Origin: a virus
Taxonomy: Duplodnaviria; Heunggongvirae; Uroviricota; Caudoviricetes
Reading direction: 5' to 3' (one strand)
IMG/VR virus record: IMGVR_UViG_2667527789_000017
Length of the DNA stretch: 9,399 bases
The number at the start of each line of letters is the position of its first letter. Position 1 is the first letter of the stretch. The translations under genes were made by a program, and so were the position numbers. The notes below the pieces were generated by a model. It made no database searches, was not told the DNA's origin, and was given only the letters and a program-made list of their open reading frames with translations. This document shows, piece by piece, positions 1 to 9,399 of the stretch.

Positions 1-1251
1 GTGCTTACCGATACAAAATTAAAAAACCTCAAGCCGCAGGACAAACTGTACAAGGTCTCCGATCGTGACGGGCTGTATGTAGCTGTGCTTACGTCAGGCA
101 CGGTCTCGTTTCGCTATGACTACCGTATCAACGGTCGTCGCGAAACACTGGTAATCGGGCAGTATGGGCGTGACGGTATCAGCCTGGCAGAAGCGCGAGA
201 AGAACTGATTGCTGCAAAGAAGCTGCTTAAAGCAGGCCAGTCACCGGCTGCGGCTAAACGTGACGGTATCAAAAAGATTCGTGGTGCCGAGACGTTTACG
301 GTACATACCGACAGTTATATGAAACACGTCATCCTGGCTGACAGTACCCGCGCAATGAAGCAGGCGGTGATCGACCGTGACATACTTCCAGTTCTTGGCA
401 ACAAAATGATGACTGAAATTACCACATCGATGGTTCGTGATTTGTGTGACCGGATTGTCGAACGCGGTGGCCGGGCAACAGCAGTGCAGGCCAGGGAGAT
501 CATCAGCAGCGTATACCGTCACGCCAATGACCGTGGTCATGGTTTGTTTAATCCTGCGGCTGATATTAAGCCTTCATCTATCGCCATATTTAAACCACGA
601 GAGCGAACGCTGACACCAGAAGAAATTGGTCTTTTCTTCCGCACGCTGGATGCCATTGGTGCTATGGGCACTATGAAAATGGCTTTAAAACTGGTGCTTA
701 TCACTATGGTTCGTAAGGGCGAATTCACCAATGCAACGTGGGATGAAATAGATTTTAAAAAATGGACATGGACAATTCCTTCAGACCGCATGAAGGGAAG
801 CCGGGCGCATGTTATTTACCTGCCTAAACAGGCACAGGATATATTGGTCGGGTTGCAGATGTGCGCTGGTGGAAGTGAATATCTGGTTCCTGGTCGTTAC
901 AATTTCCGGAAGCCATTATCTAATGCCGCGCTGAACTCTCTGATCGACAGAACGGTGAAAATAATAAATGAAGATGGTGAGCATATTCAGGATTTTACCG
1001 TACACGATATGCGCCGTACAGCCAGTACGTTGTTGCATGAGGCTGGTTATCCTTCAGACTGGATTGAAAAGGCTCTGGCACATGAGCAGAAAGGTGTGCG
1101 CGCCGTATATAACAAAGCGGAATACGCCAGACAGCGCGCCTGGATGTTGCAGCAGTGGGCCGATATGATTGATTCCTGGATTGACGGGGAGCATACGGAT
1201 CTGATTCCGTTCTCCCCGTCGAAGTTTGAGAAGTGGATGGCGGGGGAATAA
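1..1251 (+). CDS. int: Tyrosine recombinase / phage integrase (P4/CP4-57-like)
   Basis: 416-codon ORF from GTG at 1 to TAA at 1249-1251; the true start may lie at or just upstream of the window edge. C-terminal region has tyrosine-recombinase signatures (VHDMRRTASTLLHEAGY with HxxR, and RAVYNKAEYARQR as candidate catalytic Tyr). N-terminus MLTDTKLKNLKP...RYDYRINGRR resembles the arm-binding domain of P4-type integrases. Confidence 0.9.
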   Translation: MLTDTKLKNLKPQDKLYKVSDRDGLYVAVLTSGTVSFRYDYRINGRRETLVIGQYGRDGISLAEAREELIAAKKLLKAGQSPAAAKRDGIKKIRGAETFTVHTDSYMKHVILADSTRAMKQAVIDRDILPVLGNKMMTEITTSMVRDLCDRIVERGGRATAVQAREIISSVYRHANDRGHGLFNPAADIKPSSIAIFKPRERTLTPEEIGLFFRTLDAIGAMGTMKMALKLVLITMVRKGEFTNATWDEIDFKKWTWTIPSDRMKGSRAHVIYLPKQAQDILVGLQMCAGGSEYLVPGRYNFRKPLSNAALNSLIDRTVKIINEDGEHIQDFTVHDMRRTASTLLHEAGYPSDWIEKALAHEQKGVRAVYNKAEYARQRAWMLQQWADMIDSWIDGEHTDLIPFSPSKFEKWMAGE

Positions 1252-1254
1252 CGT

Positions 1255-1449
1255 TTAATTATTCTGCTGATTTTCTTCCATCTCGGCTTCTGCTGCCAGT
1301 GATTCAATTTTATCTGTGAATATTGCTGACAGTGCTGCAAATTCAGCATCAGTGACAGCGGGAATTGGAACAAACCTGATCCCGCTGTGTGCAAGCATGT
1401 TTGCAGTTTCAAGGCATTTCCTTAAATCTGCTGGTGATGCCCTGTTCAT
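1255..1449 (-). CDS. Hypothetical small protein (64 aa), last gene of the leftward operon
   Basis: ATG at 1449-1447 overlaps the TGA stop of the upstream methyltransferase gene (ATGA overlap, + strand tcat at 1446-1449). Stop TAA at 1257-1255, 3 bp from the int stop. The longer 104-aa form from 1569 would overlap the methylase by 124 bp and is less likely. No recognisable family. Confidence 0.45.
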   Translation of the reverse strand: MNRASPADLRKCLETANMLAHSGIRFVPIPAVTDAEFAALSAIFTDKIESLAAEAEMEENQQNN

Positions 1450-2096
1450 GCTGCACGCTCCCGCCCCTGGTTGTCTGTTGGTGACAGCGGAGCATTGCTG
1501 AATGCATTTGTTAATCTGGTAATATCCAACGCGTATCCAGGGGTTAGTTGCACTGCCGGGTCTTCGCACTGATTACCCCAAACATCGAAGCCATGAGACG
1601 ACTGGCGGGCGAACAGTTCAATGCGAGAAACATCGCCTAACAATTGCACAAGTTTTTCGCGAACGACATCTGGTTTTCTTGAATGCTCAAGCCGCGGTGC
1701 GGTAAATGACTGAACGATCCCTGCATTAATGCGCGGAGGTAGTTTTCCCTTTACTGCAAACAGGCAATCTTCACTATTGGCGCGAGTCATGTGTCCCATA
1801 CCCATAACCAGTTTATCTGGTTGTCGACTACCACATTTTATCCACGTGAAGCCCTTCATGGTCATCAGACGGAATCCCCAGGCTTCAACAACTTTTAGCG
1901 CTTCGAGTGGTTGTGTTGGCACCCACCACATGGCCAACAGACAGTTTTCATCGGCCAAATCCCACACAGGAAGGCGGCAGATATCCAGCACACTCATAAC
2001 CGGATATTTAAAACCGGCACCGCGATTACCATCTGCGGCTTTATCCCGGTATACCCAGGGTGGATCTGCATAGATTAGCGTGTATTTCTTAGTCAT
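1446..2096 (-). CDS. MT-A70-family DNA N6-adenine methyltransferase
   Basis: 216-aa ORF; N-terminal YTLIYADPPWVY carries the DPPW catalytic motif characteristic of MT-A70-type adenine methyltransferases. SD-like GGGGTGG a few nt upstream of ATG at 2096. No adjacent restriction endonuclease candidate, so it appears to be an orphan methylase. Confidence 0.85.
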   Translation of the reverse strand: MTKKYTLIYADPPWVYRDKAADGNRGAGFKYPVMSVLDICRLPVWDLADENCLLAMWWVPTQPLEALKVVEAWGFRLMTMKGFTWIKCGSRQPDKLVMGMGHMTRANSEDCLFAVKGKLPPRINAGIVQSFTAPRLEHSRKPDVVREKLVQLLGDVSRIELFARQSSHGFDVWGNQCEDPAVQLTPGYALDITRLTNAFSNAPLSPTDNQGRERAA

Positions 2097-2795: not shown

Positions 2796-3677
2796 TTACA
2801 TAGATGTTTCGTTTAATTCTTCCCGACAAACGCTGTAAACGTCGGTGGCTTTTGCCAGCAGTTCGTCATCATCTGAAAGTTTTTGTGCAATGTATTTGTA
2901 AGCCTTATCCAGTTCGGAGACAGTGCTGTAATTCATCGCTGCGCTGGTAAAGGCCATCAGCATTTCTTCTGGATCACGGCTATCCGCTTTACGCGTTTGC
3001 TCATCATGCTTTTTCGCTGGTTTAGCGTTGATCAGACTGTTCATTCCCGCAGCAGTAGTCGTTTGCGGAGTAATGTCTCGCTCAACACGCGGTGCCGTTT
3101 CCTGTAATTCGTCAGGGGTGTAAACACCGAGAAGCACATCAGGAGCGTGCAGGCGAGCCCATCGTTTCGTGCAAAGATAGGCAAGCTGCTGGCGCGGATC
3201 CTGTTCCCACAATGGAGAGTTACGCACTCCGGCTTGCGCCATACTGATGGTAAGCTCACGGGGTTCTGCTTCTCCTTTAAGAACTGCTGACACAGTTACC
3301 GTCAGATTCGGTGATTTATCTGTTTTGCCGTTAACATTCGACCAGTCACCGCTCCAGCGATAATTCAGGCGTGTCGCTAGCAGGCTGGAAGAGGATACGA
3401 CCGCGTTTACCAACTGTGCTTCGTAGCCTAACGTTCCGTTTACCACATGCGTTTTCTGCGCCACGGCGAAAGGGTTCATTCCCCACTGTGCCGCCTGCAT
3501 GGTCACCGCCAGACAATCGGCAGGTTTGCCTTCAAGATGTTTCGGTACAGTCGCTTTGCTTTGTGACATCAACTCCGCGAAACGCACCAGTTGATTCATG
3601 CCCTCCGGGCTGAAGATTGCCGCAGCAGTACCTACAGTTGCGCCTGGTTGTGATGTGATTGCGATATCATTGCTCAT
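2796..3677 (-). CDS. bet: Bet/Redbeta-family single-strand annealing protein (RecT superfamily)
   Basis: 293-aa ORF; local similarity by eye to lambda Bet (window NPFAVAQK... / RQQLAYLCTKRWARLHAPDVLLGVYTPDELQE / RVERDITPQ versus lambda NPWTKEIYAF... / MLRHKAMIQCARLAFGFAGIYDKDEAER / ERQPERDITP). ATG at 3677 overlaps the exonuclease stop (ATGA). Confidence 0.85.
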   Translation of the reverse strand: MSNDIAITSQPGATVGTAAAIFSPEGMNQLVRFAELMSQSKATVPKHLEGKPADCLAVTMQAAQWGMNPFAVAQKTHVVNGTLGYEAQLVNAVVSSSSLLATRLNYRWSGDWSNVNGKTDKSPNLTVTVSAVLKGEAEPRELTISMAQAGVRNSPLWEQDPRQQLAYLCTKRWARLHAPDVLLGVYTPDELQETAPRVERDITPQTTTAAGMNSLINAKPAKKHDEQTRKADSRDPEEMLMAFTSAAMNYSTVSELDKAYKYIAQKLSDDDELLAKATDVYSVCREELNETSM

Positions 3678-4495
3678 ACGTACATATCCTGTTTACGTGC
3701 CCAGTCAGGGCGTTTAATAATTTCCACTCCGCCCCACTCATCGTTGATGCGGCATTCGTGATAGGTATTCAGATCCCGGCGGAACAGAGCGTGCCCGGCA
3801 TCGACATCCGGCGCATCCAGCTCGAACACGCGTACCGGATACCGACCACAATCAATGCTTTCGCTCACGGCAAGAAAGAAAAAACCATGCGGCTGACCAG
3901 TAACCCTCATTGCGCCTTCGCGGTACATTGCGTCCTGCACGTGGTAGCGGAATTCCTCGATGTGGCGTGCAAAACGGTCCATATCTGCAACCTTTTTCAC
4001 GTCGACGATCACGTTGTGCTCGTTCAGCCATTTGTCTGGACGAATGCGGCACAACTCACCAGTATCTTCATCGTTCCAGTACATTGATGCTTCGCAGTAA
4101 CCAGGTGCTTCCAGCATCCAGCGTGCCGCCGGGTGAGCCATTGCGCTATCACGCATCATCTCCAGTTTCCGCCACTGCTCGGCATCAAGTACCGTAATCC
4201 CCATATCCGCCACATCACGAAGAAATGCCTCTTCGTCAGCTTTACCTTGTTTCGTCCGACGATCGAATTTCGGTGAAACAATGAAGCGTTTGTCGAACTC
4301 TCCAGGCTCCAGAAGCAGACAGTGCAATGCGGTTCCCATATCCAGTGCAGACTTTTTCTCTTCGTCTTCTGGTGCTGCCTGAACCCATTTAAGAAGCGCC
4401 GGATTCTTGGCAACCATGTCCAGTTGCGACTTACTCACGCCGTCACCGGCGTGGTAGTCTTCGTTGCTGATGTCGAAATAAATTCCCGGTTTCAT
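3674..4495 (-). CDS. RecE-like PD-(D/E)XK exonuclease (exonuclease VIII C-terminal-domain type)
   Basis: 273-aa ORF beginning MKPGIYFDISNEDYHAGDGVSKSQL, the typical N-terminal signature of the short RecE-like / PDDEXK phage exonucleases; candidate catalytic residues in RIRPD ... IVDVKK (D ... D-x-K). Directly upstream of and translationally coupled to the annealing-protein gene. Confidence 0.8.
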   Translation of the reverse strand: MKPGIYFDISNEDYHAGDGVSKSQLDMVAKNPALLKWVQAAPEDEEKKSALDMGTALHCLLLEPGEFDKRFIVSPKFDRRTKQGKADEEAFLRDVADMGITVLDAEQWRKLEMMRDSAMAHPAARWMLEAPGYCEASMYWNDEDTGELCRIRPDKWLNEHNVIVDVKKVADMDRFARHIEEFRYHVQDAMYREGAMRVTGQPHGFFFLAVSESIDCGRYPVRVFELDAPDVDAGHALFRRDLNTYHECRINDEWGGVEIIKRPDWARKQDMYV

Positions 4496-4793: not shown

Positions 4794-4946
4794 TCAGCCC
4801 TCCCATATCTCGTTATCGTTGGCCACATCGCGAGCTTCTTTGCTGACGAAAGCCCACTTAATGCCTTCCTGTAAGGTGCGGAACTTCCAGCTCATGAATC
4901 CGCATGCAGTAACGCAGTACCAACCGTTGATGATTTTCCACTGCAT
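4794..4946 (-). CDS. Candidate small ORF (50 aa, MQWKIINGWYCVTACGFMSWKFRTLQEGIKWAFVSKEARDVANDNEIWEG), first gene of the leftward operon
   Basis: Not in the supplied ORF track (below its size cutoff). ATG at 4946 is preceded by GAGGT about 8 nt upstream; stop TGA at 4796-4794 lies 2 nt before the next gene's ATG at 4791. Trp/Cys-rich hydrophobic N-terminal half. Sits immediately downstream of operator site 4966-4980. Confidence 0.3.
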   Translation of the reverse strand: MQWKIINGWYCVTACGFMSWKFRTLQEGIKWAFVSKEARDVANDNEIWEG

Positions 4947-4965
4947 AACTTGTTACCTCGGCTTG

Positions 4966-4980
4966 TTACCTTTGAGGTAA
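4966..4980. promoter_or_regulatory. Operator-like palindrome TTACCTTTGAGGTAA (member of TTACC-N5-GGTAA family)
   Basis: Perfect 5-bp inverted half-sites with 5-bp spacer, directly read from sequence; just downstream of the pL-like promoter elements; an orphan TTACC half-site lies at 4953-4957. Confidence 0.7.
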
Positions 4981-4982
4981 TG

Positions 4983-5008
4983 ATTATGCGTATTTGGTTT
5001 GATGTCAA
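4983..5008 (-). promoter_or_regulatory. Putative leftward early promoter (pL-like)
   Basis: On the minus strand a consensus -35 TTGACA (+ strand 5003-5008) is followed by an A/T-rich -10 region CATAATCAT (+ strand 4980-4988). Exact -10 register is ambiguous (best hexamer CATAAT gives a 14-bp spacer). Flanked by operator sites at 4966-4980 and 5028-5042. Confidence 0.35.
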
Positions 5009-5027
5009 TAGATATGAGTTAAAAAAA

Positions 5028-5042
5028 TTACCTGCAAGGTAA
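5028..5042. promoter_or_regulatory. Operator-like palindrome TTACCTGCAAGGTAA
   Basis: Perfect TTACC-N5-GGTAA; centre 62 bp from the centre of site 4966-4980, upstream of the pL-like -35. Confidence 0.7.
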
Positions 5043-5055
5043 TTGTATGGGCAAT

Positions 5056-5078
5056 AAAAAAGCCGCCATGAGGCGGCT
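5056..5078 (-). terminator. Rho-independent terminator of the repressor gene
   Basis: Minus-strand reading: stem AGCCGCC, loop TCAT, stem GGCGGCT, followed by TTTTTTATT. Stem is + strand 5061-5067 paired with 5072-5078, and the U-run corresponds to the + strand A-run 5056-5060. Begins about 22 bp downstream of the repressor stop at 5100. Confidence 0.8.
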
Positions 5079-5099
5079 TACTTGCTGAAAACTATAGTT

Positions 5100-5684
5100 T
5101 TATTGTTTGCTTTTTTCGTTCTGGTTGATGACAAATTCAATGTAACTTTCGATCTTTGCTTTCTCGGTTTCGGGTAACAATGCGTAGCGCGAGCGGTCAT
5201 AGTTGATAGTCGCGGGGTCGTGCGGGTGAATCAGTAATTCATATCCGTGACGCCCGAATGCGGATGCAACATTCTCCAGGGTGGAAATGGAAACGCTGAC
5301 CTCATTGTTTAACAGGCGGCTGATTGTCACCTGGGCGACGCCGGATGCGCGGTGAAGTTTTCCCTGCGTTGAAAGGTCGCGGCTTTCGCTCATCCAGCGT
5401 TCCAGGTTGTGAGCCGCCAGCTGACCAATGTCGCTTGGTCCGACAGGCTGAAAACCTTCCTGAGAAAGCGAGCGATCGATATCAAGCCAGTTACGGGGTT
5501 TATTGGCGGCAGCTTCAATTTTTCGCGCAACCTGGTCGCCGATAACCTTCTTGCCAAGAGCCCAGCGGTTTACCAGATTTGCCTGAGTTCCAAGTTTTTC
5601 TGCCATCCGCGTCTGAACACCATTGAATTCACGGTCGATCAAGTCGTTGAGATTTTGCCTGCGGACGTCCTGGATACTTTTCAT
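5100..5684 (-). CDS. Prophage repressor (CI-like role) with two tandem Cro/C1-type HTH domains and no S24 peptidase domain
   Basis: 194-aa ORF divergent from a Cro-like gene across an operator-rich intergenic region. Two HTH_XRE-like segments: GVQTRMAEKLGTQANLVNRWALGKK and ASGVAQVTISRLLNNEVSVSISTLENVASAFG. C-terminus shows no LexA/CI-type autopeptidase signature. No SD within normal distance of the ATG at 5684, compatible with a leaderless or short-leader mRNA as for lambda cI from pRM. Confidence 0.75.
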   Translation of the reverse strand: MKSIQDVRRQNLNDLIDREFNGVQTRMAEKLGTQANLVNRWALGKKVIGDQVARKIEAAANKPRNWLDIDRSLSQEGFQPVGPSDIGQLAAHNLERWMSESRDLSTQGKLHRASGVAQVTISRLLNNEVSVSISTLENVASAFGRHGYELLIHPHDPATINYDRSRYALLPETEKAKIESYIEFVINQNEKSKQ

Positions 5685-5739
5685 TTTCTGGAAAATCGCC
5701 TCATATATGAATCAGTAGATGATTCAATTTAAAGCAATA

Positions 5740-5754
5740 TTACCCAACAGGTAA
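5740..5754. promoter_or_regulatory. Operator-like palindrome TTACCCAACAGGTAA (immunity region site 1)
   Basis: Perfect TTACC-N5-GGTAA in the divergent repressor/Cro intergenic region. Confidence 0.7.
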
Positions 5755-5756
5755 AT

Positions 5757-5771
5757 GCACCCCATAGGTAA
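5757..5771. promoter_or_regulatory. Operator-like site GCACCCCATAGGTAA (immunity region site 2, one half-site variant)
   Basis: Right half GGTAA perfect, left half GCACC instead of TTACC; centre 17 bp from site 1. Confidence 0.55.
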
Positions 5772-5777
5772 CTATCC

Positions 5778-5813
5778 TTGATTTTTGTTACCTTATGGGT
5801 GAATATTTATTAT
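5778..5813 (+). promoter_or_regulatory. Putative rightward promoter for the Cro-like gene (pR-like)
   Basis: Candidate -35 TTGTTA (5785-5790), 17-bp spacer, -10 TATTAT (5808-5813). Alternative -35 TTGATT (5778-5783) with -10 GAATAT (5801-5806). Operator site 3 overlaps the -35/spacer. Confidence 0.4.
5788..5802. promoter_or_regulatory. Operator-like site TTACCTTATGGGTGA (immunity region site 3, one half-site variant)
   Basis: Left half TTACC perfect, right half GGTGA (reverse complement TCACC, same variant class as GCACC). Lies in the spacer of the putative rightward promoter. Confidence 0.55.
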
Positions 5814-5838
5814 CTGAAATAAATATCAGGCAATAGCT

Positions 5839-6069
5839 ATGAGCGATAACGGACATTTCGATTTCAAAAAGCACTGGCTTGCACTTACTCCGGATGAGCG
5901 TGAAGCCTTCGCACAGGAAGCCGGAACGACGAGTCACTATATCCAGACTCACTTAACAGGTAAGCGCAAAATGCCAGGTAAGGTATTGATGAATGGGCTT
6001 TTTAAAGCCTGTAAAACAAGACAATGGCTGAGCTCAAAAGCAGAACTGGCATACTTCTTCTACTCATGA
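5839..6069 (+). CDS. Cro-like small HTH DNA-binding protein
   Basis: 76-aa ORF divergent from the repressor. AFAQEAGTTSHYIQTHLTGKRKMPGKVLMNGLFKAC resembles the Cro/YdaS-type HTH layout (compare lambda Cro [29 protein letters not shown]). Followed by a strong terminator. Confidence 0.7.
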   Translation: MSDNGHFDFKKHWLALTPDEREAFAQEAGTTSHYIQTHLTGKRKMPGKVLMNGLFKACKTRQWLSSKAELAYFFYS

Positions 6070-6090
6070 TATCCAGCCACAACCCTCTGT

Positions 6091-6114
6091 AGACCGCCAT
6101 CCGGCGGTCTTTTC
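6091..6114 (+). terminator. Rho-independent terminator after the Cro-like gene (tR1-like position)
   Basis: Stem AGACCGCC (6091-6098), loop ATCC, stem GGCGGTCT (6103-6110), then TTTT (6111-6114); 22 bp after the Cro-like stop. Confidence 0.8.
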
Positions 6115-6124
6115 ATATCTATTC

Positions 6125-6139
6125 GCACCTCAAAGGTAA
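6125..6139. promoter_or_regulatory. Operator-like site GCACCTCAAAGGTAA immediately downstream of the Cro-gene terminator
   Basis: Same family (GCACC variant left half, perfect GGTAA right half); lies 11 bp after the terminator T-run and about 80 bp before the next gene. Confidence 0.5.
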
Positions 6140-6217
6140 CAAAAAACCAAATCTGGTTGATCAAATTTTCCAATTGTGCAAAATAGCCAATATCAATAAC
6201 AAAAAGGGGCAGAAAAA

Positions 6218-6430
6218 TTGAAGATAGTAACCAGAATGGAGGCCGCAAAAGCCGGGTTAAATCGCTATTTCACAGGAAAGCGGTGCCGTCACGGCCATCT
6301 CTCTGAAAGGTATGTTCTGAACGGAACATGTGTTGAATGTGCAATGAATAGCGCCAACCGCCATCGTAATGAATTTGCTTGTGCACTAAAGAGTGCAAGA
6401 GGGGAAACCTATGGCAAGCAGCTGGATTAA
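6218..6430 (+). CDS. Small protein with putative zinc-binding motif (C-x-H-x-H ... C-x2-C), function unknown
   Basis: 70-aa ORF from TTG at 6218 preceded by AAAGGGG 8 nt upstream; an internal ATG at 6236 has no SD. Motif GKRCRHGHLSERYVLNGTCVEC. Occupies the position between cro and the replication genes where lambda has cII, but shows no similarity to CII. 3' end overlaps the next gene by 20 nt. Confidence 0.5.
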   Translation: MKIVTRMEAAKAGLNRYFTGKRCRHGHLSERYVLNGTCVECAMNSANRHRNEFACALKSARGETYGKQLD

Positions 6431-8032: not shown

Positions 8033-8047
8033 TTACCTGTTGGGTAA
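8033..8047. promoter_or_regulatory. Operator-like palindrome TTACCTGTTGGGTAA
   Basis: Perfect TTACC-N5-GGTAA, upstream of the promoter-like elements that precede the gene at 8113. Confidence 0.7.
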
Positions 8048-8066: not shown

Positions 8067-8095
8067 TTGATTTAGTGTCTTATGTGGTTTTTAAT
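8067..8095 (+). promoter_or_regulatory. Putative sigma70 promoter for the downstream operon
   Basis: -35 TTGATT (8067-8072), 17-bp spacer, -10 TTTAAT (8090-8095); predicted start site falls inside operator site 8096-8110. Confidence 0.45.
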
Positions 8096-8110
8096 TACCT
8101 TAGAGGTAAA
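8096..8110. promoter_or_regulatory. Operator-like palindrome TTACCTTAGAGGTAA overlapping the transcription start and RBS of the gene at 8113
   Basis: Perfect TTACC-N5-GGTAA; its GAGG doubles as the Shine-Dalgarno sequence 6 nt before ATG 8113; centre 63 bp from the centre of site 8033-8047. Confidence 0.7.
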
Positions 8111-8112
8111 TC

Positions 8113-8457
8113 ATGAGAAAACAGATACAGGCTCTTGGTCGACTCAAAACAGGCCAGATGAACAAAACAGAATCTGCGTATTGCCAGCACCTTGAGCTGC
8201 GTAAACGTGCAGGAGAAATCGTCTGGTATCGATTTGAGGGTATCAAGCTGCGGTTAGCTGACAACACGTTCTATACGCCCGATTTTGCTGTGATGCTCGC
8301 CACCGGCGAGATGGAACTGCACGAAGTGAAAGGTTTCTGGACCGACGACGCCAGGGTGAAAACCAAAGTCGCCGCAGATCAGTATCCGTTCCGAATCATC
8401 GGGGTAACGGTTAAACCAAAGAAAGCAGGTGGTGGCTGGAACATCGAAGAGTTCTGA
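8113..8457 (+). CDS. DUF1064-like phage protein with PD-(D/E)XK nuclease-type motif (putative structure-specific nuclease)
   Basis: 114-aa ORF; FYTPDFAVM ... ELHEVKG gives a D ... E-x-K arrangement typical of PD-(D/E)XK nucleases. Overall pattern recalls the DUF1064 family of small phage proteins, assigned from memory only. Confidence 0.6.
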   Translation: MRKQIQALGRLKTGQMNKTESAYCQHLELRKRAGEIVWYRFEGIKLRLADNTFYTPDFAVMLATGEMELHEVKGFWTDDARVKTKVAADQYPFRIIGVTVKPKKAGGGWNIEEF

Positions 8458-8518
8458 ATCGACGATCTTTTTAGTTATCAATGTAATCAATAAGTTATGT
8501 GGATAAGCGAGGGTAAAG

Positions 8519-9079
8519 ATGGAAAGTAATATCAAAGGGTTAGTTGCCGCCGGGCATGAGATGGCTTCGGAACTGAAAGCAGAATGCGGTGCCGTTGATA
8601 TGCGCAGTGTGGCAAAGCTGATCAGCGATTTGGCAACGCAACTGGAAGTGCAACTGGTGCGTGCTAATGCGCTGGCCGAAGACCAGCAGAAAGCGATTGA
8701 GTCAATTAAGCAGGCTGATTCGGCTGTTAAGTTGGCACACGAGAAGTTTTCGGCGCTTGCGGCGGAGAATGAACTGGCTCGTAAGGCAGTTCAGGCATTC
8801 TGCGATGTTGTTGGCGACAACACCGAGGTTATCGCTGAGGAGGTTGGGCGAGATGGCGTTCTGGTTATTTTGGAGGCCATGAAGGCAACAGGAAATATGC
8901 CAGCCACCGATGCTTTCCTGTCGGATGTGCGGGCTGGGGCGTTTAACGACCTTTGCGCGGCGTTCGTTAAGGACGCGACGGTTGTCGGGCTGGACGATGG
9001 CGACATCGTTACGGTGAAAGAAGCGAAGGACGCCCTGCTGCATTGTGCGGAACAGCTTCGCAAAGGAGGCAACCAGTGA
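8519..9079 (+). CDS. Hypothetical phage protein (186 aa, Ala-rich, acidic, predicted helical)
   Basis: ORF preceded by GAGGG 5 nt before ATG 8519; consistent coding frame; stop TGA at 9077-9079 overlaps the GTG start of the next ORF. No family recognised. Confidence 0.6.
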   Translation: MESNIKGLVAAGHEMASELKAECGAVDMRSVAKLISDLATQLEVQLVRANALAEDQQKAIESIKQADSAVKLAHEKFSALAAENELARKAVQAFCDVVGDNTEVIAEEVGRDGVLVILEAMKATGNMPATDAFLSDVRAGAFNDLCAAFVKDATVVGLDDGDIVTVKEAKDALLHCAEQLRKGGNQ

Positions 9080-9399
9080 GCAAGATTGACTATCAGGCAC
9101 TGCGTGATGCGGCAGTAGCAATTGAAACAGTAGCAACGCCTCAAAAATTGCTGGCATTTCGTATGAAAGTCACACCTCAGGTTGTGCTGGCACTGCTGGA
9201 TGAACGGGAAAGAAACCAGCAATACATTAAACAGCGCGACCAGGAGAACGAGGAGATTGCGCTAACGGTAGGAAAGCTGCGTGTTGAGCTTGAGGAAGTA
9301 AAACAACACGCTGAAGAATTATCCGAAACCAAGGCTGTTCGTAACCAATGGCGGCCAGATATTTGCCCAATAACCGGACGTACATTTTTCATGTGGATT
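9076..9399 (+). CDS. Hypothetical phage protein, 5' partial (runs off the window); possibly Ea22-like coiled-coil protein
   Basis: Not in the supplied ORF track. GTG at 9076 preceded by AAGGAGG with 6-nt spacing and overlapping the upstream stop (GTGA). Open frame for 108 codons to the window end: VSKIDYQALRDAAVAIETVATPQKLLAFRMKVTPQVVLALLDERERNQQYIKQRDQENEEIALTVGKLRVELEEVKQHAEELSETKAVRNQWRPDICPITGRTFFMWI. The Ea22-like assignment is a weak recollection. Confidence 0.5.
   Translation, partial: MSKIDYQALRDAAVAIETVATPQKLLAFRMKVTPQVVLALLDERERNQQYIKQRDQENEEIALTVGKLRVELEEVKQHAEELSETKAVRNQWRPDICPITGRTFFMWI

Follow-up and report, generated by a model that had tools for sequence, protein, structure and literature searches.

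The repressor gene and its domains

The window analysed here is a stretch of 9,399 nucleotides of viral DNA (IMG/VR record IMGVR_UViG_2667527789_000017, Caudoviricetes), and its positions 5100–5684 encode, on the minus strand, a repressor of 194 residues, referred to below as Rep. Nucleotide identity places the window in a Uetakevirus (epsilon15/phiV10-like) prophage of Escherichia coli, as its early region. The region 4900–6300 is 97–98.5% identical to phages HEMP4, TL-2011b, ZX5, and phiV10, and the nearest complete E. coli prophage, in NZ_CP145628, matches the window at 97.8%. By homology, the open reading frame (ORF) at 5100–5684(−) is a full-length ortholog of Rep from the Salmonella phage SPC32H and the lysogeny-maintenance repressor of a phiV10-type Uetakevirus prophage. 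The gene and the domains of its product, two of which have a helix-turn-helix (HTH) fold, are as follows.

5100..5684, minus strand: rep, prophage maintenance repressor, 194 residues, ATG start; ortholog of SPC32H Rep, epsilon15 gp38, and phiV10 gp40
5475..5684, minus strand, codons 1–70: N-terminal HTH domain (NDD), probably operator-binding; AlphaFold2 helices 4–59 at a predicted local distance difference test (pLDDT) score of 85–92
5232..5432, minus strand, codons 85–151: second HTH-fold domain, counterpart of the middle dimerisation domain (MDD) of SPC32H Rep; HTH_3 at 27 bits, five-helix bundle in the AlphaFold2 model
5103..5231, minus strand, codons 152–194: C-terminal domain (CAD), responsible for tetramerisation and binding of the antirepressor Ant in the SPC32H homolog; conserved motif, aligns to 5D4Z and 5D50

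The whole protein matched the Pfam family HTH_3 with an E-value of 1.2e-9 (38.5 bits, cut-off 23) over two separate stretches, and YdaS_toxin, a Cro-like HTH family, at residues 21–61. Taken alone, residues 81–154 exceeded the HTH_3 cut-off (4.7e-6, 27 bits), while residues 1–80 gave only sub-threshold HTH matches (YdaS_toxin, 4.4e-4; HTH_3, 0.013, 16 bits). The AlphaFold2 monomer, predicted with 40 homologs at a mean pLDDT of 79.5, comprises two HTH-type helical bundles (residues 4–59 and 85–151) joined by a disordered linker, and a separate C-terminal element formed by the helices 164–168 and 172–193. Rep is a member of the XRE/Cro-C1 HTH_3 superfamily, in which its N-terminal domain falls below threshold by sequence and is HTH-folded in the model and in the homolog. 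Residues 147–194 matched no Pfam family even at E ≤ 10; the CAD nevertheless carries a motif, I-x-YD-x3-Y-x2-LP-x2-EK-x-KI-x2-(Y/F)I-x-F, that is kept in all relatives.

A sequence-only reading of this locus had described two HTH domains in a chain of 194 residues. Both are recovered by Pfam and AlphaFold2, and the third domain, the C-terminal segment of about 45 residues, had been missed. The same reading had noted the lack of an S24 self-cleavage domain, and this point stands: Peptidase_S24 (PF00717), the domain with the Ser-Lys dyad, matched neither the whole protein at E ≤ 1 nor its pieces at E ≤ 10 in profile-HMM searches. The two HTH domains gave no alignment when compared with each other by BLASTP, and a recent internal duplication was therefore rejected as their origin. 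Residues 106–192, covering the middle HTH and the CAD, show a weak, sub-threshold NCBIfam likeness to RstR of CTXphi (19.6 bits against a cut-off of 80). RstR is likewise under the control of an antirepressor, RstC.

Homology to the SPC32H repressor

BLASTP aligned residues 1–193 of Rep with SPC32H Rep at 43% identity (E 1e-53), and a phmmer search against the PDB returned 5d50_A over residues 1–190 (E 3.5e-42). Two crystal structures represent the SPC32H protein, 5D4Z (Rep residues 92–198) and 5D50 (the Rep–Ant complex). Both were the top Foldseek matches of the AlphaFold2 model (5D50 as 5d50_A/K/I), and the C-terminal half of the model superposes on 5d4z_H with a TMt of 0.81 and a root-mean-square deviation of 2.6 Å over 100 columns. 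The three-domain order of SPC32H Rep is thus matched by the model and by Foldseek, with the CAD modelled at pLDDT 53–77. The updated epsilon15 record also cites 5d50_A for its repressor.

Among the E. coli phages, HEMP4 encodes a protein 100% identical to Rep, and phiV10 gp40 and ZX5 ORF21 are each 99.5% identical to it. The window Rep differs from phiV10 gp40 by one residue, and gp40 and ORF21 are the same protein with no substantive difference. The GenBank note on phiV10 gp40 already reads "two helix-turn-helix motifs". When ZX5 ORF21 was overexpressed, free phage was abolished and the transcripts for endolysin and holin dropped by over 99.9% (Li et al. 2022, PMC9782041).

Operators and the regulatory region

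The rep gene occupies the cI position, as the sequence-only reading had placed it: it diverges from a cro-like gene, and operators lie over promoter-like sites on both sides. With at most one mismatch allowed, the window contains 7 copies of the motif TTACC-N5-GGTAA where 0.18 would be expected; none of 200 shuffles reached 7, which bears out the symmetric 15-bp operator of that reading. The elements of the regulatory region are listed below (operators unstranded).

4966..4980: operator OL-1, TTACCTTTGAGGTAA, which overlaps the leftward promoter-like site at its −10 end
5008–4980, leftward: strong promoter-like site, with a −35 TTGACA at 5008–5003, a spacing of 17 bp, and an AATCAT −10 ending at 4980
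5028..5042: operator OL-2, TTACCTGCAAGGTAA, 62 bp from OL-1
5060..5079, minus strand: intrinsic-terminator-like hairpin directly 3' of rep; phiV10 has the same element, annotated there as a terminator
5740..5754: operator OR-a, TTACCCAACAGGTAA, on the side nearer to rep
5757..5771: probable weak operator OR-b, GCACCCCATAGGTAA, with 2 mismatches, 17 bp from OR-a
5788..5802: operator OR-c, TTACCTTATGGGTGA, between the −35 and −10 of the rightward promoter-like site 5785–5813
5839..6069, plus strand: cro-like gene, 76 residues, divergent from rep; phrog_35 'transcriptional repressor' (E 1.1e-12), syntenic with SPC32H_042 and epsilon15 gp39
6091–6110: terminator-like hairpin after the cro-like gene
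8033–8047 (TTACCTGTTGGGTAA) and 8095–8109 (TTACCTTAGAGGTAA): third operator pair, with a spacing of 62 bp, immediately before the DUF1064 gene at 8113–8457

This arrangement is conserved among the relatives. The 62-bp spacing of operator pairs recurs in Tyrion, epsilon15, and SPC32H, and is 63 bp in BUCT711, while the OR offsets of 17 and 30–31 bp recur in SPC32H and epsilon15. The updated epsilon15 record annotates three repressor-binding sites, all of which coincide with TTACC-N5-GGTAA matches. The third operator pair is also found in SPC32H (35972/36034) and HEMP4 (9407/9469), and, so placed, it may belong to a third early promoter under Rep control or act as a partner in looping.

Motifs of the Rep operator are dispersed over the genomes of relatives: HEMP4 has 14 (0.67 expected) and the NZ_CP145628 prophage locus 16 (0.72 expected). 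Two of them lie close together near the small-terminase gene, others flank the antirepressor gene ant, and one falls between int and guaA. Their number is far above the need of a simple OL/OR switch.

Rep might alternatively be an antitoxin-like protein or an accessory XRE regulator and no immunity repressor: the BP9 phage record names it 'VapI antidote', and Rep shows a weak likeness to the HTH models of HigA, HipB, and YdaS. These likenesses are sub-threshold (HigA, 18.7 bits against a cut-off of 47.7; HipB, 12.7 against 79), and neither a toxin partner nor a toxin-like gene was found among the neighbours in the window. An antitoxin or accessory regulator would also sit oddly with a gene at the cI position between operator-bearing divergent promoters, with orthologs annotated rep or repressor in epsilon15 and SPC32H, and with the block of lytic gene expression caused by overexpression of ZX5 ORF21. 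We regard this identity as extremely unlikely.

Operator recognition and stoichiometry

The operator half-site is common to five Uetakevirus Reps (window, Tyrion, BUCT711, epsilon15, and SPC32H), although their overall identity goes down to 43%. The NDD is the best conserved domain, with 54–56% identity to distant Reps against 31–42% for the MDD. Its predicted recognition helix, NLVNRW (residues 36–41), is invariant in these five proteins, all of which have the TTACC half-site. The net charge is +4 for the NDD and −1 for the MDD. From these sequence features, we infer that the N-terminal HTH domain is the operator reader.

In SPC32H Rep, the N-terminal domain binds DNA, the MDD dimerises, and the CAD tetramerises Rep and binds Ant (PMC9986798). 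Since these domain roles are known, the second HTH of Rep is assigned, by analogy, a structural rather than an operator-reading role. The tetramer of SPC32H Rep is the DNA-binding form, its dimer binds weakly, and each palindrome takes two DNA-binding domains that come from different dimers (bioRxiv 2021.09.07.459249). The question raised by the sequence-only reading, whether a single chain or a dimer of two-domain chains occupies each site, thereby has an answer for the homolog: a tetramer that contributes two N-terminal domains per site.

The middle domain has features that could speak for a more active part. It is the stronger HTH_3 match (27 bits, against 16 for the N-terminal domain), it keeps the family-conserved Q and R positions, and its HTH+CAD module has homologs that stand alone at the cI position with this HTH as their only one, so that the ancestor very probably bound DNA. 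Both HTH domains might then contact DNA, either with one chain per palindrome or with the middle HTH reading a second motif or bridging paired operators. The operators themselves point in another direction. They are dyad-symmetric with identical half-sites 10 bp apart, as expected for two copies of one domain and not for unrelated helices (NLVNRW and VTISRLL), and their perfect symmetry argues against a single chain placing two unrelated HTHs on each palindrome. In addition, the half-site and the N-terminal helix are conserved together across Reps that are 43% identical, the charge of the middle domain is negative where that of the N-terminal domain is positive, and its counterpart forms the dimer interface in the crystallised ortholog. 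DNA binding by both domains is accordingly judged quite improbable, and the middle domain may retain residual DNA binding at most.

The antirepressor and the probable induction route

The antirepression system formed by Rep and Ant in SPC32H was reportedly described by Kim & Ryu 2013 (J Virol 87:11775) and Kim et al. 2016 (PNAS 113:E2480). Ant is made when LexA is inactivated, and this LexA-controlled protein inactivates SPC32H Rep (PMC7380047, citing Kim & Ryu 2013); antirepression by Ant is described also in bioRxiv 2021.09.07.459249 and PMC9986798. Together with the lack of an S24 domain, the inactivation of the ortholog by Ant supports the earlier proposal that lambda-type RecA-stimulated autocleavage does not operate here.

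The SPC32H ant gene encodes 86 residues and diverges from the tailspike gene. At the same position, ZX5 encodes an 85-residue 'hypothetical protein' (ZX5 2089–2346) that is 88% identical to SPC32H Ant. In relatives with the same Rep, ant lies approximately 24 kb beyond the right end of the window, beside the tail-fibre gene. Upstream of the ZX5 gene are TACTGTATAAATATACAGT, a LexA box close to the consensus, and the Rep operator TTACCTTTCAGGTAA; a second operator follows the gene. In HEMP4 and in the NZ_CP145628 prophage, TACTGTATAAATATACAGT and a Rep operator likewise stand before ant. The gene occurs in 35 of the 37 phage records with a Rep match, and the ant region was found in 529 E. coli genomes. 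At the 77 ant loci of IMG/VR, a LexA box is present in 76 (in 74 of them 37–38 nt upstream of the ATG) and an exact Rep operator in 62. The small gene is labelled 'hypothetical protein' in every E. coli record examined, including ZX5. Prophages of the phiV10 species are induced 21–47 fold by a DNA-damaging microcin (bioRxiv 10.64898/2026.05.26.727859).

The window itself, 9.4 kb long, contains no ant. The only match is a 19-residue C-terminal resemblance in the EaE-like ORF. LexA boxes in the window are limited to matches with 1 mismatch at chance level (4 against 3.2 expected), and neither a protease nor an antirepressor gene was found among its genes. The search for an antirepressor gene with a LexA box, suggested by the sequence-only reading, thus succeeded in same-Rep relatives and not in the window. 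That reading had offered an antirepressor encoded elsewhere, a protease adaptor, and a non-SOS signal as possible routes. The first is supported by ant and its LexA box in phages with the same Rep, and the other two are disfavoured.

A repressor without an autocleavage domain could also be induced if a host or phage protease (ClpXP, Lon, or an ImmA-like enzyme) degraded it, or in response to a non-SOS signal. The high spontaneous induction of ZX5 lysogens could be read in this way, and other inputs could act through the larger Bro-N and ORF6N proteins of these phages, whose C-terminal domain is Ant-like. No protease gene adjoins rep, however, and a highly conserved ant stands behind a near-consensus LexA box in 76 of the 77 loci. 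Antirepression has been shown in the homologous system, and the phiV10-type prophages respond to DNA damage. A route of this kind that bypasses Ant is therefore considered very unlikely.

Several side observations concern Ant and its relatives. In the EaE-like ORF (8519–9079), the last 19 or so residues (9008–9064, VTVKEAKDALLHCAEQLRK) resemble the C-terminus of Ant (MSMQDLQTHLDYCAEQLRK) with a pairwise E-value of 0.001, and this could reflect a shared C-terminal helix or chance. The product of ZX5 ORF4 (1078–1773, minus strand), a Bro-N 'anti-repressor', has 75 C-terminal residues that are 42% identical to the small Ant, and the ORF6N protein of the NZ_CP145628 prophage (8440–9159, plus strand) has the same Ant-like C-terminal domain. 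Given these C-termini, these phages carry two or three Ant-domain proteins each. Between the Uetakeviruses of E. coli and those of Salmonella, Ant is conserved at 84–88% identity and Rep at only 43% (44% in the Ant-binding domain), a difference that may point to cross-induction between phages or to some further constraint on Ant.

Proposed mechanism

The homology and fold of Rep, its operators, the absence of an S24 domain, and the presence of ant with its LexA box in relatives with the same Rep are direct observations. On this basis, Rep is very probably a lysogeny-maintenance repressor that is bound to its operators and switched off by LexA-controlled Ant, not by autocleavage. The N-terminal HTH would recognise TTACC-N5-GGTAA at OL, OR, and the third early site, thereby shutting off the divergent early promoters. 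By analogy with SPC32H, the second HTH-fold domain would dimerise, and the C-terminal segment of about 45 residues would tetramerise Rep and bind the antirepressor. Rep would be active as a tetramer that places two N-terminal domains on each palindrome. One tetramer could then occupy a pair of operators, which fits the conserved paired sites. Upon DNA damage, inactivation of the host LexA would derepress the 85-residue ant. Ant would bind the C-terminal domains of Rep and break up the tetramer, as in the homologous system, and Rep would leave the DNA.

The oligomeric state of Rep, its binding by Ant, and the presence of ant in the source prophage are inferred from SPC32H and the relatives, and several points weigh against this mechanism. 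The account of the SPC32H Rep–Ant mechanism is taken from secondary descriptions. Identity to SPC32H Rep is only 43% overall, 31% in the MDD, and 44% in the Ant-binding domain, and the CAD, to which Ant would bind, is modelled at a pLDDT of only 53–77. The middle domain keeps the conserved HTH positions Q118 and R123. Biochemical data on a Rep–Ant pair come from SPC32H and not from the phiV10 type. Since ant lies outside the window, its presence in the source prophage is an extrapolation from relatives. Finally, the ZX5 study tested the larger Bro-N 'anti-repressor' and not the small Ant (PMC9782041).

Origin of the repressor

An exhaustive phmmer search over 1.84 billion representatives recovered the full three-domain architecture of Rep in only about 15 clusters. 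Its parts are found separately. The NDD alone (residues 1–80, approximately 45% identity) matches the N-termini of Peptidase_S24 repressors (P0131, P0158, P0164, and P0177). The MDD and CAD alone match many stand-alone proteins of about 110–170 residues, in which the sole HTH is of the MDD type (P0105, P0110, P0120, and others; phrog_13326). The genomic context of these proteins comes from viral contigs; a scan of genome contigs gave one poor, high-GC locus. On two IMG/VR contigs (L012 and L013), the stand-alone HTH+CAD protein is encoded at the cI position, divergent from replication genes and upstream of recombination genes, and on L012 a cro-like repressor gene lies between it and the replication genes. 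No homolog of the N-terminal domain was found near the stand-alone genes on either contig.

Because the NDD and the HTH+CAD part have these separate homologies, Rep looks like a chimera, judging by its sequence relationships, in which an S24-type DNA-binding domain was fused to a whole HTH+CAD repressor. A chimeric Rep whose middle HTH still contacts DNA, for example by stabilising loops between the pairs spaced by 62 bp or by reading a second motif, is conceivable and unlikely. If it were true, the Rep tetramer would deploy eight HTH units, not four.

Genomic context of the window

The genes of the window stand in the same order in phiV10, ZX5, and SPC32H.

Window gene order, part 1: integrase, DUF1382, MT-A70 methylase, PerC, AlpA, RecT, PDDEXK exonuclease, two small ORFs, rep
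Window gene order, part 2: divergent cro-like ORF, DnaT-like, lambda-P-like, DUF1064, EaE-like

RecT (2796–3677) and the PDDEXK exonuclease (3674–4495) are encoded by separate ORFs with a 4-bp overlap in the window and in ZX5, whereas the phiV10 record has one fused 'recET' coding sequence of 1761 bp in their place. A tRNA search of the window found none, while the ZX5 paper has one near the corresponding region. The immunity region was found in 561 of 5426 complete E. coli genomes.

Comparison with other repressor systems and significance

The closest counterpart of the system is Rep–Ant of SPC32H, with which it shares the genus, the gene position, synteny, and the three-domain order. The TTACC-N5-GGTAA half-sites and their paired or tripartite arrangement are common to both. 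In relatives with the window's Rep, the cognate Ant is 88% identical to that of SPC32H, and in both cases a LexA box precedes its gene, which neighbours the one for the tailspike or tail fibre. The two systems differ in the central 5 bp of the operators, which are A/T-rich in SPC32H and mixed in the window, and in the middle domain, where SPC32H Rep has Pro in place of the Gln (Q118) kept in the phiV10 type. The E. coli phages further encode one or two larger proteins whose C-terminal domain is Ant-like.

The logic of the circuit resembles that of the Gifsy/Fels-2 prophages and of CI and Tum in coliphage 186, in which the repressor is not cleavable and SOS is sensed through an antirepressor gene that LexA represses and that lies apart from the immunity region. 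The Gifsy/Fels-2 repressors and their LexA-controlled antirepressors were reportedly described by Lemire et al. 2011. The repressor and antirepressor folds of Gifsy/Fels-2 and 186 are not known to be related to those of Rep and Ant, and the action of Tum and of the Gifsy antirepressors on their target repressors is described as different. With lambda CI, P22 C2, and LexA, Rep shares its role and genome position, with divergent PL/PR-type promoters and multiple operators. Rep differs from them in lacking the S24 domain and autocleavage; the C-terminal two thirds of the protein, which align to 5D4Z, are instead formed by an HTH-fold dimerisation domain and an Ant-binding tetramerisation domain.

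A further parallel is Rco of plasmid pLS20, which likewise combines an XRE-type DNA-binding domain at the N-terminus with a small tetramerisation domain at the C-terminus and is controlled by a protein antirepressor (Rap). The C-terminal domain of SPC32H Rep has been equated with the TetDloop fold of Rco and p53 (PMC9986798). Rco lacks a middle HTH-fold dimerisation domain, acts in a plasmid conjugation circuit and not in a phage, and has no detectable sequence homology to Rep in its C-terminal part.

Genetic and structural work has already described the Rep–Ant system of SPC32H, and the records of phiV10, ZX5, and epsilon15 annotate the same protein, so that the present finding adds little. 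The apparent domain swap, in which an S24 module was replaced by an HTH and Ant-binding module, provides an example of how repressors may change their induction input, as an evolutionary footnote and not as a new mechanism. For the approximately 10% of complete E. coli genomes that carry this immunity region, SOS induction of the prophage would be expected to proceed from LexA through Ant to Rep, not by cleavage of the repressor.

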